DNA of 64,000 bases from a virus (IMGVR_UViG_3300025638_000003:1-64000); one strand, 5' to 3'; positions 3,385-18,451 are shown, counted from the first letter of the stretch. Made by a program: numbers and translations. Notes: generated by a model not told the origin, from the sequence alone.

Positions 3385-3459
3385 GCCGGTGAAGCATAAA
3401 TGGTGATGCGCAGGTCTTGTAAACCTGAGAATCCGGTTCGATTCCGGGCACCGGCTCCA
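3385..3459 (+). tRNA. tRNA-Thr (TGT)
   Basis: GCCGGTG/CACCGGC, CTTGTAA loop. Confidence 0.95.
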
Positions 3460-3474
3460 TAATTAACGAAAATT

Positions 3475-3548
3475 GCCACATTCGTATAACGGAATTATGC
3501 ATCTTTCGTAAAGATGAGACGGGGGTTCGACTCCCTCATGTGGCTCCA
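3475..3548 (+). tRNA. tRNA-Thr (CGT)
   Basis: GCCACAT/ATGTGGC, CATCT-TTCGTAA-AGATG. Confidence 0.95.
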
Positions 3549-3552
3549 ATTT

Positions 3553-3619
3553 TACTCGTTAGCTTAATGGCAAAGCATCGGAATTTTCCGAGATATTGGC
3601 TCTAATCCAATACGAGTAA
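3553..3619 (+). ncRNA. tRNA-like RNA lacking an anticodon loop and CCA
   Basis: TACTCGT/ACGAGTA acceptor, normal D-arm (TAGCTTAATGGCAAAGCA), TCGGA-ATTT-TCCGA, T-arm ATTGG-CTCTAAT-CCAAT. Confidence 0.65.
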
Positions 3620-3622
3620 ATT

Positions 3623-3698
3623 GTCCCGGTGGCCGACTGGGGAAGGCGGCTCTCTGCAAAAGAGCATTAGGTGGGTTCGATTCCCACCCGGGACTCCA
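3623..3698 (+). tRNA. tRNA-Cys (GCA)
   Basis: GTCCCGG/CCGGGAC, CTGCAAA loop, TCCA. Confidence 0.95.
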
Positions 3699-3759
3699 TT
3701 ATTCTTCTAAATATTTTTTCTATTTTTTTAATATTTCAATATTATACTTATTAGTATAT

Positions 3760-5040
3760 ATGAATAATGACATAGCAGTTATATCGACATTTTTCAATCC
3801 TCTAAAATATAAAAATCGTTATGAAAATTACTTAAAATTTCAGGATTTTATATATGAATGTGGATTAAAAGATCATTTTTATGTATCGGAAGTATTATAT
3901 AAAAATGATGAACCATTTATCAATCATAAAAATATATTAAGATTTAAAACTGAAGATATTTTATGGCATAAAGAACGAGCGTTAAATTTAACTGTAAAAA
4001 CTCTTCCAAAACAATATACTAAAGTTGTCTGGGTTGACACTGATATAATTTGGTCCAATATAAATTGGTGGAAAGAAGTTAGTAAATTATTAGAAGAATA
4101 TAATATAATTCAACCATTTGCTTATTGTAAATTTTTAAATTCCCATTTTAATTTGGATCACACTCAAATGTCCATATTTCATAGATTATTCCGAATAAAT
4201 AATGGATTGCCAACGTTTCATGCTATTCATTATGGTGGAACAATGGCTTATAATAGAAAATATTTTGAATGCGTTGAACTTTATGATAAAGATATAATTG
4301 GAGGAGGGGATTTTATATCAAATATATCGATATTAAAAATGCCTATAGATGAAAATGTTCAAGCGTTTGATCCTGAATTAGATTCATATATTGAAAAATC
4401 GGGTAAATATTTAGAAAACAAATATCATTATTTAGATGATTCAGTTTATCATCTTTATCATGGTCAGCTTCATGATCGTCAATATATAAAGAGATATTCT
4501 ATTCTTAAAAATTATATTTTTAATGATATGTGTGAAAAGGATGATAATGGGTTATATAAGTTTAAGTCAACTGTTTCACAAAAAATAAAATCACAATTTT
4601 TAGATTATTTTAAAACTAAAAATGAGGATTTAATACAATTTATTGTTTCTTTAAGTAAGTCATATAATATTGAAAGAAGTTCAAATGGAAATTTCAAATG
4701 GATTTCGGCTGAAAATATATATGAATTATATAATTTAAAAAGTATTAAATTAAAAGTTAGTCGAATGGGGAATTCTAATACCTCTCCATATTTAAATGTT
4801 ATATGTAATGGAAACTTTAAACATTATTCGCTAGATTTAAATAAAGATACTGAAATCATTATTCCTGTTTCTGATAAAAAAGAAGTATCTAAACTTATTC
4901 TTTTAGGAAAAGGATTTGTACCTGCCGAAATAGATTTAAACAGTCGGGATTTTCGCCAATTATCTTATGCAATTAAAAAAGTAGAAATTTTACAACAAAA
5001 TAAAACAGAATATGAAAATTATTTATTAGAAAATTTTTAA
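3760..5040 (+). CDS. GT-A fold glycosyltransferase, paralog 1
   Basis: WHKERALN, WVDTD (DxD), GGGD, HLYHG motifs; C-terminal beta-rich domain. Confidence 0.7.
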   Translation: MNNDIAVISTFFNPLKYKNRYENYLKFQDFIYECGLKDHFYVSEVLYKNDEPFINHKNILRFKTEDILWHKERALNLTVKTLPKQYTKVVWVDTDIIWSNINWWKEVSKLLEEYNIIQPFAYCKFLNSHFNLDHTQMSIFHRLFRINNGLPTFHAIHYGGTMAYNRKYFECVELYDKDIIGGGDFISNISILKMPIDENVQAFDPELDSYIEKSGKYLENKYHYLDDSVYHLYHGQLHDRQYIKRYSILKNYIFNDMCEKDDNGLYKFKSTVSQKIKSQFLDYFKTKNEDLIQFIVSLSKSYNIERSSNGNFKWISAENIYELYNLKSIKLKVSRMGNSNTSPYLNVICNGNFKHYSLDLNKDTEIIIPVSDKKEVSKLILLGKGFVPAEIDLNSRDFRQLSYAIKKVEILQQNKTEYENYLLENF

Positions 5041-11410: not shown

Positions 11411-12058
11411 ATGATAAAGTTAAAACAATTACTTAGGGAATTCCAAGAAAGGAAGGAATTATACCATGCAACTACTCGGAAAGCAGCAAATGGCATTATA
11501 AATAGAGGGACTGATATAAGTTTAGCAGGAAAACATTATGGTGGTGCGGGAAGAGATCAGGGATCGGGATTTTATTTTTTTACAAATAAAGGCGATGCTA
11601 TAAAACAAGCAGAAGATTTTGATGGAGAAGTTATTTTAGTATTTAATCAAAAAATTTCAGTTGAAGATTTTGATGTTGATTATGAAGTTGAGGAGAAATC
11701 TTGTAAAAAGTTTTTATTAAAACATTTGGAATTTGTTAAAAAACATGCTGAAGCATTGGGGATAAAAGAAGTTCGTCCAAAAAATCATTTTGCAGGACCA
11801 GTGCTTATATTAAGAGTACCCGATAATCCTCGGGCTATGAGGGCTATGAATTTGAGTGTAACGGGATCCATGAGTTCATATTATGCAACCATCATATCAA
11901 TTATGTTTCGAACTTTGGAAAGAATAAATAAAGGATTATTTTTAAAATTTAAAAAAGAATTTTTATTTGATGCTGTGGCTATTAAATACATTGGAGAAAA
12001 ACCTTTATTTCCTATTAGAGTTGAAGATCTTAAAGGTAATATTATTTTAAGACTTTAA
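11411..12058 (+). CDS. Putative ADP-ribosyltransferase (H-Y-E/PARP-like clade)
   Basis: ELYHAT...II..G and QGSGFYFFT motifs; N-terminal MIKLKQLLRE. Confidence 0.55.
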   Translation: MIKLKQLLREFQERKELYHATTRKAANGIINRGTDISLAGKHYGGAGRDQGSGFYFFTNKGDAIKQAEDFDGEVILVFNQKISVEDFDVDYEVEEKSCKKFLLKHLEFVKKHAEALGIKEVRPKNHFAGPVLILRVPDNPRAMRAMNLSVTGSMSSYYATIISIMFRTLERINKGLFLKFKKEFLFDAVAIKYIGEKPLFPIRVEDLKGNIILRL

Positions 12059-12065
12059 ATTTTTA

Positions 12066-12152
12066 GCATCCGTGGTGTAAATGGATAACACACTTGGCTT
12101 CGAACCAAGAGACGACTCGCTTGTGGGGGTTCAAATCCTCCCGGATGCACCA
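12066..12152 (+). tRNA. tRNA-Arg (TCG) with extended variable region
   Basis: GCATCCG/CGGATGC, CTTGG-CTTCGAA-CCAAG, 15-nt variable region. Confidence 0.85.
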
Positions 12153-12154
12153 TT

Positions 12155-12232
12155 CCCGTCTGGGCAGGTGGGGTCATATTGCGCTAGTCTGAAGAACTAG
12201 AGAACTCCGTTCGACTCGGAGAGACGGGACCA
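12155..12232 (+). tRNA. tRNA-Phe (GAA)
   Basis: CCCGTCT/AGACGGG, CTAGT-CTGAAGA-ACTAG. Confidence 0.9.
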
Positions 12233-12247
12233 ATTTCAAAATGTTAC

Positions 12248-12275
12248 TTGACATTTATTTAAATCTTGGTATAAT
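12248..12275 (+). promoter_or_regulatory. Sigma70-type promoter
   Basis: TTGACA-16nt-TATAAT with TG extension. Confidence 0.75.
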
Positions 12276-12296
12276 GTCTAGTAAAATTAAAGTAAT

Positions 12297-12521
12297 ATGA
12301 AGTTGACGTTGAAATTTCAAGACCAAGATTTTGAAACCTTGCGTAAATTTGATTCGGCGGTGAAACGCCAATTGGGACCCAATGTTTATGTGGGGACAGA
12401 TTATTTGTGTTTTTACTTTGATTTCCCCAAGAAACTTTCGGAGAGGCTTCGGCCTCATGCGCCAAAAGGCGAATTGGAAGTAACTTTGGAATCTTCGGTT
12501 CCAGATGCAAGAAAGAATTAG
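12297..12521 (+). CDS. Hypothetical protein
   Basis: ORF directly after promoter. Confidence 0.6.
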   Translation: MKLTLKFQDQDFETLRKFDSAVKRQLGPNVYVGTDYLCFYFDFPKKLSERLRPHAPKGELEVTLESSVPDARKN

Positions 12522-12526
12522 ATTTT

Positions 12527-12893
12527 GTGAGGGGTAAGTTGTCTAACCCCGAACGGTGACAACAAAGCATGTGAGACATGCTGCTATGGTGGATAAAGAA
12601 ATGGACATCCTAGAGGCACCACCCCGTATAGGATATGATGGGTAGTTTTGTTCCGGAAAGGGACATATTGCGCAAACCGCATTTTCTTTCCCCATCCAGA
12701 GAAATGCGGGTATTAATTTATCTCAATGAATTGTATAAGTAATAATATTGCTTTACGGGTTGAGAAGGTTATATAAACAACACACCACAATAACGGGTTC
12801 GAAACCGGACGATAATGTGTTGGGTGAGAGCATGGAATCTTACTTATAATCCCAATTTCCATGAATTGAGAAGCAATTGCTTATCTCAACCCT
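12527..12893 (+). ncRNA. Large unidentified structured RNA with multiple pseudoknots
   Basis: ORF-free, GC-elevated; four loop-to-distal complementarities and a T-loop-like GGTTCGAAACC. Confidence 0.6.
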
Positions 12894-12895
12894 TT

Positions 12896-12973
12896 CAGCG
12901 TGTCGCCTAGCCCGGCATGGCACTTGCATGGGGTGCAAGAATAACGTGGGTTCGAATCCCACCACGCTGACCA
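12896..12973 (+). tRNA. tRNA-Pro (GGG)
   Basis: CAGCGTG/CACGCTG, CTTGC-ATGGGGT-GCAAG; close paralog of tRNA-Pro(CGG). Confidence 0.95.
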
Positions 12974-12980
12974 ATCTCAA

Positions 12981-13096
12981 CAACTATTAAATAGTGCCAA
13001 TTGAAGCGACACGAAGTAGAAAGGAAAAGTTGATAGTTGGAAGTTATATTGGCAAAGCCTGAAAGGTGTCATTCTACGTTCTTTGTCAATATAATT
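12981..13096 (+). ncRNA. Two-hairpin RNA with complementary (kissing) loops
   Basis: Stems CAACTATTAA/TTGATAGTTG and GTTATATTGGCAAAG/CTTTGTCAATATAAT; loops GACAC/GTGTC and GTAGAA/TTCTAC. Confidence 0.55.
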
Positions 13097-13173
13097 GGCA
13101 CCGTGGCCCAACAGGAAGAGGCGGCTGACTTAGGATCAGTAGGTTGGGGGTTCGAATCCCTCCGGTGCTACCA
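13097..13173 (+). tRNA. tRNA-Leu (TAG), short variable loop
   Basis: GGCACCG/CGGTGCT, CTTAGGA loop. Confidence 0.9.
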
Positions 13174-13203: not shown

Positions 13204-13698
13204 ATGATAACTAAAGTTATAGCTGATGTATTAAAATACCCATGTAATGCAATATGCCATCAGGCAAATTGTTTTCATACAATGGGTTCGGGGGTAGCCC
13301 TTCAAATTAAGAAAAAATATCCCGAGGCTTATGAAGCCGATATTAAACATGGAAAAAAGGGAGATCGATTAAGATTAGGAAGTATGTCGGTAGCCCAAGC
13401 TAAAGATGGAAAATATATTTATAATGTATATGGCCAATATGAATATGGAACCCATAAAAGACAAACTAATTATGAAGCTTTATATACTGGATTAGAATTA
13501 GTTAAATCTCATGCTTTGGATCACGATATAAAAGATTTAGCCGTACCTTATTATATGAGCAGTGCTTTGGCCGGAGGAAATTGGATAATAGTAGAATCAA
13601 TGTTTCGTGCTTTATTTGAATATTCTACTATTAACATAATAGTTTGTGAATATAGACCTATGCATTATTGGTCTGCTGATGAAATGAAGAAAAATTAA
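13204..13698 (+). CDS. Macro domain protein (ADP-ribose binding/hydrolase)
   Basis: AICHQANCFHTMGSGVALQIKKKYP, YNVYGQ, ALAGGNW motifs. Confidence 0.85.
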   Translation: MITKVIADVLKYPCNAICHQANCFHTMGSGVALQIKKKYPEAYEADIKHGKKGDRLRLGSMSVAQAKDGKYIYNVYGQYEYGTHKRQTNYEALYTGLELVKSHALDHDIKDLAVPYYMSSALAGGNWIIVESMFRALFEYSTINIIVCEYRPMHYWSADEMKKN

Positions 13699-17532: not shown

Positions 17533-17979
17533 ATGATAAAAATAATTACTTCAATGTTAGAAGATAATAGTGGAGGTATTTCTACTATTAGAGTATGTTT
17601 ATTGTTGTGGTTAATAATTCTGGGGTTTAATATGACTTATGGAACTATTACCGAAAAACCATTCCCTATTACAGGAGAATTAGTTGCTTTAACATCATGT
17701 GTATTTGGAGCAAAAGCAATTCAAAGATTTGGTGAGAAAGGTGAAGAAGAAGCGGCGATTGCGTCAAATAATTTAAATACGGGGGACGTTAGAATATCGC
17801 AACTTCCTCTAACTGTGAGTGTGCAAGGATCGGTTCCAGTGAGTGGAATGGTGCCAATTTCGGCCAATCCTTCGGTGCCAACTGTAATTCCAATGACTCC
17901 AGTTGTACCTGAGCCGCAACCAGTTCCAAATCCTCGGGAACCCGAGCCGTGGGGTCCCGGACAAGTAGCTGCGCCTTAA
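17533..17979 (+). CDS. Membrane protein with Pro-rich tail, possible holin-like
   Basis: Two TM segments after GGISTIR; KAIQRFGEK; Pro/Val-rich C-terminus. Confidence 0.5.
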   Translation: MIKIITSMLEDNSGGISTIRVCLLLWLIILGFNMTYGTITEKPFPITGELVALTSCVFGAKAIQRFGEKGEEEAAIASNNLNTGDVRISQLPLTVSVQGSVPVSGMVPISANPSVPTVIPMTPVVPEPQPVPNPREPEPWGPGQVAAP

Positions 17980-17981
17980 AC

Positions 17982-18029
17982 TTGACATTTAAAACTAATG
18001 TGATATAATTTTACATGATCTTTGAAAAT
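17982..18029 (+). promoter_or_regulatory. Sigma70 promoter followed by boxA-like TGATCTTTGAAAA
   Basis: TTGACA-16nt-TATAAT (TG extended) then boxA-like motif before rnpB. Confidence 0.7.
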
Positions 18030-18031
18030 TA

Positions 18032-18267
18032 TTTAGGCGACTTAGACGCTGAATATGGTTAAGCCCATATTTAGAGGAAGTTCGATACTACCAAACCTAA
18101 TGTGGGAGAAAATATTTCATTGACCACAGAAGTAGCAATCCTAAATGTCCGAGGGTGTCGGTTTCCCATTGACGACTGGTTGGAGCAGCAACTATTAGCA
18201 CGTTGCCACAATTTTTATTGTGAGATAAATGTCTAAGATAATACAGAATATCGGCTATTTGCCTAAA
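18032..18267 (+). ncRNA. rnpB: Compact RNase P RNA (rnpB-like), ~236 nt
   Basis: P1 TTTAGGCGA/TTGCCTAAA, P2 CTTAGAC/GTCTAAG, P3, CR-I GAGGAAGTTCGATAC pairing (P4) with CR-V ACAGAATATCGGCTA, CR-II-like CACAGAAG, GAGATAAATG. Confidence 0.8.
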
Positions 18268-18273
18268 GAATTT

Positions 18274-18361
18274 CGGATAGACGCCCATAAGGTAGGTGCC
18301 GAAAGGGCTGCGTAGGTGACGCTAAAACAACAATGTCGTTTCGTTGTTCACCGTCTATCCG
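18274..18361 (+). ncRNA. Unidentified small structured RNA
   Basis: Perfect 10-bp closing stem CGGATAGACG/CGTCTATCCG with internal GAAA hairpin and AACAAC/GTTGTT. Confidence 0.5.
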
Positions 18362-18375
18362 TCAATTTAATAGAT

Positions 18376-18451
18376 GGGGTTATCGTTCAATTTAGTAGGA
18401 TAGGAAATTCGCAATTTTCAGATCTGTGTGCAATTCACAGTAACTCCACCA
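18376..18451 (+). tRNA. tRNA-Ala (CGC)
   Basis: GGGGTTA/TAACTCC with G3:U70, TTCGCAA loop. Confidence 0.85.

Follow-up and report, generated by a model that had tools for sequence, protein, structure and literature searches.

An ORF-free interval in a phage tRNA array

The DNA analysed here (hereafter, the window) is a 64,000-nt stretch from the start of a 101.8-kb IMG/VR virus record (IMGVR_UViG_3300025638_000003). From 2.3 to 22.9 kb, its + strand carries 33 tRNA genes located by ARAGORN. Within this array, a promoter is followed by an ORF for a conserved 74-aa protein ("ORF74"), by an interval at 12527-12893 that is the subject of this study, and by a tRNA-Pro gene (Table 1). By the CheckV estimate, the source record is 29% complete, so that the full genome would measure roughly 350 kb. 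Even the nearest cultured phages are distant, with 30-37% protein identity over <40% of one large protein, and a BLAST search of the DNA against 50,697 phage records returned zero matches.

Table 1. Positions of the promoter, genes, RNAs and structural elements discussed in the text (window coordinates unless a relative is named).
Feature	Position	Strand	Details
Sigma-70-type promoter	12248-12275	+	TTGACA, 16 nt, TATAAT, with TG; 12/12 consensus match
ORF74	12297-12521	+	conserved 74-aa protein; 36 homologues, 62-75% identity
RNA A (predicted)	12527 to ~12715	+	~190 nt, three pseudoknots; nine members
RNA A, PK1	12531-12563	+	P1 GGGGT 12531-35/ACCCC 12546-50; loop GTTGTC 12538-43 pairs with GACAAC 12558-63
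RNA A, hairpin P2	12566-12582	+	AGCATGT/ACATGCT
RNA A, PK2	12588-12634	+	P3 GGTGG 12588-92/CCACC 12619-23; loop ATCCTA 12607-12 pairs with TAGGAT 12629-34
RNA A, PK3	12637-12709	+	GATGGG 12637-42 pairs with CCCATC 12691-96 in the 8-nt P6 loop
RNA A, hairpin P5	12649-54/12660-65	+	loop GGAAA (family GGNAA); between the PK3 arms
RNA A, long hairpin P6	12677-89/12698-12709	+	hosts the PK3 loop
Spacer	12716-12756	+	A+T-rich; contains TATAAGTAA (12734-42), the upstream PK4 arm
RNA B (predicted)	12757-12892	+	136 nt, multi-stem; ten members
RNA B, closing stem P1	12757-65/12884-92	+	GGGTTGAGA/TCTCAACCC
RNA B, P2	12778-12822	+	CAACACA/TGTGTTG; best-aligned part of the R2 match
RNA B, hairpin P2b	12795-12806	+	GGTTCGAAACC
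RNA B, hairpin P3	12831-12863	+	CATGGAA/TTCCATG; 19-nt loop with palindrome TTATAA (12844-49)
RNA B, hairpin P4	12871-12882	+	AAGC-AATT-GCTT, palindromic tetraloop
tRNA-Pro(GGG)	12896-12973	+	ARAGORN; Rfam tRNA 50.2 bits
TATGGNTAAGTCNNTAAACC-type element	L009 ~12390-12540; L053 ~3820-3980; L128 ~12850-12895	- in L009	

A first-pass annotation had described 12527-12893 as one large, ORF-free RNA of ~365 nt with a chain of four pseudoknots. All 19 of the motifs that it named lie where it placed them, and the + strand of the interval contains no ORF longer than 35 aa. The G+C content is 41%, vs 32% window-wide. The + strand folds with -110.1 kcal/mol (z = -3.85), a value equalled by 0 of 100 shuffles, and the - strand gives z = -2.2 vs shuffles. 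Scanning the whole window with Rfam 15 at gathering thresholds matched tRNAs alone, and a scan of 12230-13100 at E<=10 returned only the tRNA-Pro and four chance-level matches (13-17 bits), i.e., no catalogued family even at this permissive cutoff. Together with the covariation described below, the ORF, fold and Rfam searches support the view that the interval is noncoding, structured, pseudoknotted and outside catalogued families.

The promoter at 12248 is the sole strong match upstream of ORF74 and of the two predicted RNAs, which we refer to as RNA A and RNA B. The window contains no promoter-like site between the two RNAs and no terminator-like site on the + strand through 13400. ORF74 belongs to a family of 72-87-aa proteins that we saw solely inside phage tRNA arrays. 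It has no Pfam family, its AlphaFold model reaches a pLDDT of 70 and Foldseek gave no match at E<=0.001; we therefore rejected a recognisable RNA-binding fold. Readthrough or frameshifting at its stop codon was likewise rejected, given a second stop two codons on and neither a conserved slippery site nor a downstream frame.

Further elements surround this group of genes. Upstream lie a 215-aa ORF (11411-12058; no Pfam match) and a tRNA-Arg(TCG) gene (12066-12152; 60.4 bits with Rfam tRNA) of 87 nt that carries a long extra arm, an unusual trait for an arginine tRNA. Downstream, a third structured element (12974-13096), flagged separately in the first pass, fills the gap from tRNA-Pro to tRNA-Leu; it is closed by the stem GTGCCAATT/AATTGGCAC, whose last base directly precedes tRNA-Leu, and a promoter-like GTGTCA-18-TATAAT (13066-13095) lies inside it. 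Just past tRNA-Leu, 13204-13698 encodes a macro-domain protein (Pfam PF01661, E = 3.7e-10).

Two separate predicted RNAs with conserved folds

Relatives were found using ORF74 as a handle, by fetching contigs that encode its homologues, and more members were sought by scanning IMG/VR and JGI metagenomes for exact patterns taken from conserved RNA segments. Matches to these patterns were mostly due to chance and were filtered out by covariance models or inspection. The resulting families are small, with 9 members for RNA A (the window, L002, L009, L013, L028, L046, L053, L055 and L068, all of them uncultured huge-phage contigs) and 10 for RNA B. Sequence identity of members to the window is 57-68%, and between members it reaches 92%; because of this close relatedness, some of the covariation counts given below do not represent independent events. 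Compensatory changes were found in both RNAs.

The covariance model of RNA A, R1, scores its nine members at 154-222 bits and finds the RNA as a single copy per phage record. Neither the phage record nor a related phage, complete at 354 kb, yielded further copies or paralogues, and of 49 pattern matches in representative bacterial and archaeal genomes, R1 confirmed 0. With the helix register set by hand in each sequence, 415 of 427 helix cells were canonical (97.2%), and double changes occurred at 23 of the 49 helix positions. When the 3' letters were dealt anew among the sequences, 1000 such permutations averaged 85.9% canonical cells and never exceeded 88.5%, while compensatory positions averaged 10.2 and peaked at 16. 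Sliding the helix partners by 1-3 nt left only 41-45% canonical. The predicted fold of RNA A is conserved through compensatory changes, with at least one double change in every pseudoknot helix, and its G-U pairs place it on the + strand. Three of the four proposed pseudoknots, PK1, PK2 and PK3, are kept along with their host stems via such changes in the eight relatives.

The helices vary as follows. P1 is an 8-bp stem in relatives, where 6 of 8 positions covary, and the PK1 loop helix GTTGTC/GACAAC becomes GTGGTC/GACCAC in L053. Hairpin P2 has compensatory changes at 3 of 6 positions (e.g., CCCG/CGGG in L013 and ACACG/CGTGT in L055). The large loop of P3, a stem that can also be given as GGTGGA/TCCACT, pairs just downstream to form PK2, whose loop helix occurs in four versions (TCCTA/TAGGA, ACCGA/TCGGT, CCCGA/TCGGG and CTCTC/GAGAG), with compensatory changes at 4 of 5 positions. 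In PK3, GATGGG/CCCATC is replaced by AGTGGG/CCCACT in L055, and P5, P6a and P6b all covary. RNA A would represent a compact triple-pseudoknot fold, adding to the few natural examples known.

RNA B measures 136 nt in the window and 150-180 nt in relatives. RNAalifold, run on six relatives, predicted a closing stem P1, a P2 with an inner P2b, and then P3, P4 and P5, and 18 of the 40 pairs in total show compensatory change; the predicted fold of RNA B, too, is conserved through compensatory changes. A covariance model built without the window or L013 (R2) matches 12755-12894 of the window full-length, with 28.4 bits and E = 1.2e-4 in 152 kb, and also detects L013 and L125. Within the window match, the P1/P2 half aligns well and the remainder loosely or poorly. 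The GGGTTGAGA/TCTCAACCC stem noted in the first pass is conserved, but closes this second RNA, and the GGTTCGAAACC hairpin that had been called T-loop-like turned out to be P2b, an ordinary hairpin whose loop differs in relatives and does not resemble a T-loop. The internal-loop motifs ACAATA and ACGATA, which flank P2b, are conserved in relatives. A loop that does resemble a T-loop is found elsewhere: in L013, L054, L125 and L128, the last hairpin of RNA B, P5, is GGTTCAACTCC, with a 7-nt T-loop-like loop. In these four relatives, the T-arm-like P5 lies directly against the 3' strand of P1, so that the two resemble the acceptor/T-arm minihelix of a tRNA. In RNA B generally, the 5' and 3' ends pair like a tRNA acceptor stem. 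The position of P5 next to the P1 3' strand suggests that RNA B may descend from a tRNA gene and might be processable by tRNA-processing enzymes.

That the interval comprises two separate predicted RNAs, and not one large RNA, is evident from the gene order in relatives. In five of them (L002, L009, L028, L053 and L068), the order is ORF74, RNA A, tRNA-Lys(CTT), promoter, RNA B and tRNA-Pro(CGG). The promoter between the two RNAs has the form TTGACA-N16/17-TAnnAT (TTGACA-17-TACGAT in L002; a 12/12 match in L053) and in L002 and L053 ends ~10 nt before RNA B. Each RNA also occurs alone: L046 has RNA A with no RNA B downstream and a tRNA-Pro 47 nt further on, L055 has RNA A alone in the DNA examined, and L054 and L125 have RNA B without RNA A. 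We name RNA A and RNA B separately because of this interposed tRNA-Lys and promoter and because each occurs alone; the first-pass caveat that the interval may hold two RNAs was correct. The window itself has neither the tRNA-Lys(CTT) nor the internal promoter between the two halves, so that both RNAs would here be read from the promoter at 12248.

The first-pass reading, in which the fourth pseudoknot ties the halves into a single ~365-nt RNA, draws on this missing internal promoter, on the missing terminator-like site between the halves, and on PK4 itself, where the 9-nt TATAAGTAA (12734-42) can pair with TTACTTATA in the P3 loop at 12840-48. PK4 is, however, the only link that joins the two halves, and it is not conserved: the 9-nt complement occurs in the window alone, and no relative has an equivalent. 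It lacks a counterpart because its upstream arm sits in the spacer, which in relatives is filled by the tRNA-Lys and the promoter. An A+T-rich 9-nt match within ~370 nt is, by a rough estimate, only borderline unlikely by chance. A search for other complementarity between the two RNAs yielded a 7-nt match between the P1 loop of RNA A and the P3 loop of RNA B, present in just L053 and L068 and rejected as not conserved. Since relatives interpose a tRNA gene and a promoter and contain either half without the other, we consider a single large RNA very improbable.

Palindromic loops in RNA B

The P3 loop of RNA B contains a palindrome of at least 6 nt in 10 of 10 members. These palindromes, of 6-8 nt, come in six versions: TTATAA (in the window), CTTAAG, CTATAG, TCATGA, CTCATGAG and TCTAGA. 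The joint probability of such palindromes arising by chance, calculated for random loops matched in length and composition, is ~1.5e-6. In two comparisons, L002 vs L068 and L028 vs L053, the loops are identical except for a double change from CTTAAG to CTATAG. Palindromes are not confined to P3: a palindromic tetraloop (CATG, GTAC, CCGG or AATT) caps P4 in 7 of 10 members, and the P2b loops often carry 4-nt palindromes.

Since adjacent self-complementary bases cannot pair inside one loop, these palindromes point to pairing between two molecules, and since the P3 palindrome changes in sequence yet stays self-complementary, two copies of RNA B can be predicted to kiss. Kretsch and co-workers took palindrome-to-palindrome covariation as support for the view that OLE and GOLLD form symmetric kissing loops between molecules (10.1101/2024.12.08.627333). 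RNA B displays the palindrome-preserving covariation of self-assembling RNAs of the GOLLD/ROOL/OLE type, a likeness that is functional and does not imply homology. Cofolding predicted an RNA B dimer to be 10.6-16.9 kcal/mol more stable than two monomers, a figure for which no control was run, and the window's own UUAUAA kissing duplex is predicted to be weak (-2.0 kcal/mol). The palindromic hairpins could, on the other hand, reflect quasi-palindrome correction at the DNA level or a protein site. On balance, symmetric self-association via the P3 loop, and perhaps via P4, appears to be the most likely mode of action of RNA B, a view that we hold tentatively and with somewhat less than even confidence.

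A more extended reading would have RNA B, made with the phage tRNAs, associate with itself via P3, P4 and possibly P2b, i.e., two to three palindromic loops. The product would be a symmetric dimer or some larger assembly of RNA only, akin to the GOLLD and ROOL cages in miniature. In this reading, the translation or tRNA-processing machinery would be the target of RNA A, as a new triple-pseudoknot class in its own right. We regard this reading as a whole as a doubtful proposition. It predicts that the palindromic loops bring about dimerisation and that altering one palindrome half should abolish the dimer. If true, the range of RNA self-assembly would extend from ornate RNAs of 600-800 nt down to a tRNA-like scaffold of ~150 nt, and RNA self-assemblies would be tied more firmly to phage tRNA biology.

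Possible roles and relation to known RNAs

Our preferred explanation, which we consider probable, is that the interval holds two independent structured ncRNA genes that sit among the tRNA genes of an uncultured huge phage. Both predicted RNAs have conserved folds, are separable, lie on the strand of the tRNAs and belong to no catalogued family. Both would be transcribed along with the tRNAs, in the window from the promoter at 12248, and in relatives RNA B would have its own promoter, heading a tRNA-Pro/tRNA-Leu unit. RNase P cleavage at the downstream tRNA would then release the two RNAs. The gap from RNA B to tRNA-Pro is 3 nt in the window and 8-20 nt in most relatives, and in six relatives tRNA-Lys directly adjoins RNA A, a layout that is consistent with the earlier suggestion of a 3' end defined by RNase P. 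Once released, the RNAs would persist as stable trans-acting RNAs, like T4 rnaC and rnaD, with two copies of RNA B kissing through the palindromic loop and RNA A serving as a compact, nuclease-resistant scaffold that would be recognised by a protein or by the translation machinery. For RNA A, this role as a free trans-acting scaffold is plausible, and we would put it at a little below an even chance.

The constant place of RNA A suggests a different role, that of an untranslated element acting in cis at the 3' end of the ORF74 mRNA, whose pseudoknot block might shield a 3' end made by RNase P or tune the termination or translation of ORF74. RNA A begins 3-9 nt past the ORF74 stop codon in 9 of 9 members, whereas its downstream neighbour changes (tRNA-Lys six times, and an HNH gene, tRNA-Pro and RNA B), and, being single-copy per record, it is never found away from ORF74. 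Moreover, L051, L066 and L067, which lack RNA A, have a tRNA gene 1-2 nt after the ORF74 stop, so that RNase P cleavage would leave an mRNA that ends at the stop codon. The weight of this constant position is, however, reduced by probable shared descent and by the tight packing of the arrays: the ORF74 copies that adjoin RNA A have sequence signatures in common, so that linkage may be plain shared descent, and gaps of no more than a few nucleotides between genes are the rule throughout these arrays. ORF74 also lacks RNA A in at least nine loci (L011, L012, L051, L054, L066, L067, L069, L121 and L125), a simple hairpin would suffice against exonucleases, and there is neither a conserved slippery site nor an open frame past the ORF74 stop. 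We judge a cis-acting role unlikely. A new self-cleaving ribozyme or ligand-sensing riboswitch ahead of tRNA genes would account for the compact multi-pseudoknot fold of RNA A, its invariant junction nucleotides, its position directly upstream of a tRNA and its lack of a known family. Yet no expression platform, terminator or start-site-sequestering helix lies downstream, the downstream neighbour varies, and there is no resemblance to known ribozyme cores at E<=10 (nor did YrlA or any ribozyme or riboswitch family of Rfam match at this cutoff), which makes such an identity improbable.

A last alternative holds that the RNAs are very divergent forms of tmRNA, RNase P RNA, the Y RNA-like YrlA or T4 rnaC/rnaD, or else decaying, functionless tRNA pseudogenes. 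tmRNA combines a row of H-type pseudoknots with an acceptor stem and T-arm that enclose a large insert, and tmRNA genes are known in large phages. The pseudoknot run of RNA A recalls tmRNA PK2-PK4, the closing stem of RNA B is acceptor-like, and its four relatives with the T-arm-like GGTTCAACTCC add to the likeness, as does T4 rnaC, which likewise ends in a T-arm-like hairpin. Here, however, pseudoknots and tRNA-like ends are found on two separate RNAs. ARAGORN found no tmRNA in the window, and Rfam found none in the stretch at E<=10, where YrlA and the RNase P families, with their conserved regions CR-I and CR-V that form P4, were also without match. The closing stem of RNA B has G3-C70 in place of G3-U70, and its end reads CCC and then T or A, so that no CCA is encoded. 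There is no conserved tag frame: three-frame translations of nine RNA B members have no peptide in common, and what follows PK1 in RNA A forms a covarying hairpin that shows no codon-like conservation. An unfiltered search of T4 70.7-71.4 kb with R1 and R2 gave only fragments of <=9.4 bits and no full-length match to rnaC or rnaD. Strong covariation in both RNAs argues against pseudogenes. We consider this group of identities extremely improbable.

RNA A and RNA B, which we prefer to view as two independent phage ncRNAs, have their nearest counterparts in two small stable RNAs of T4, rnaC (139 nt, also called species 1) and rnaD (119 nt, species 2), ncRNAs that lie on the tRNA strand within a phage tRNA cluster and, according to the T4 annotation, adjoin a homing-endonuclease gene. 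The 3' T-arm-like hairpin of rnaC resembles that of RNA B in four relatives, but rnaC and rnaD have no sequence or structure similarity to RNA A and RNA B, and we know of no report of a multi-pseudoknot fold or palindromic loop in either. GOLLD and ROOL, which the first-pass annotation had cited as large ornate RNAs of phage tRNA clusters, are pseudoknotted phage or prophage RNAs often found near tRNA islands, and RNA B has the same palindrome signature. To our knowledge, none of rnaC, rnaD, GOLLD and ROOL has an assigned function. RNA A (~190 nt) and RNA B (136 nt) are much smaller than GOLLD or ROOL. No Rfam match to GOLLD, ROOL or OLE was found in the stretch at E<=10. GOLLD, ROOL and OLE are three to six times larger, by lengths taken in part from 10.1101/2024.12.08.627333. 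The same work describes them as homo-oligomers held by kissing loops, whereas oligomerisation of RNA B is predicted from sequence only.

A type III toxin-antitoxin system of the ToxI kind was rejected, as the sequence shows no tandem repeat of the ~36-nt kind and the neighbour, where a ToxN-like endoribonuclease gene would be expected, is a 74-aa ORF without Pfam family. The tobamovirus upstream pseudoknot domain and the dicistrovirus IGR IRES are modules of ~190 nt with three pseudoknots each. In tobamoviruses, the module lies between the stop codon and a tRNA-shaped 3' end, matching the order ORF74, RNA A and tRNA-Lys. These elements belong to eukaryotic RNA viruses and have no sequence relation to RNA A; furthermore, the phage arrays have a genuine tRNA gene at this place, whose tRNA should be removed by RNase P, and there is no downstream ORF that would need an IRES. 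Candidate structured RNAs in IMG/VR number 8,495 in the study by Fremin and co-workers (PMC10690425), and short self-assembling RNAs have a general precedent (10.64898/2026.07.01.735769). Neither the RNA A nor the RNA B motif is described in the literature that we found on structured RNAs of phages and IMG/VR, on GOLLD, ROOL and OLE, and on short self-assembling RNAs. Two small uncatalogued families would join T4 rnaC/rnaD, GOLLD and ROOL among the RNAs of phage tRNA islands, and both RNAs are short enough for direct probing, mutation-and-rescue and structure determination.

Some observations concern the wider arrays. The candidate "minimal RNase P RNA" of the first-pass annotation (18032-18267) had no Rfam match at E<=10 in a scan of 17900-18400, and an ARAGORN tmRNA call in L009 (3517-3892, - strand) looks like tRNA-Ala(GGC) and tRNA-Ala(TGC) read as one. 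Relatives carry another conserved noncoding element after RNA B or tRNA-Pro, TATGGNTAAGTCNNTAAACC ... GGGCGTGTCTTGCTTG.TCGGTTGTATGT, which is absent from the window (Table 1). L051 (~3990-4110) and L067 (3339-3420), from phages without RNA A and RNA B, have a different conserved noncoding segment, TATGGGCCGTA.TCTGAAACACTCGACAGGAGTTTGGAGTTCGTG..., before tRNA-Pro. In L013, a small ORF with zinc-finger and HNH-like Cys/His motifs (3419-3826) lies between RNA A and tRNA-Lys, and the L051 and L054 arrays also contain HNH-type genes, just as the T4 tRNA cluster contains segB.
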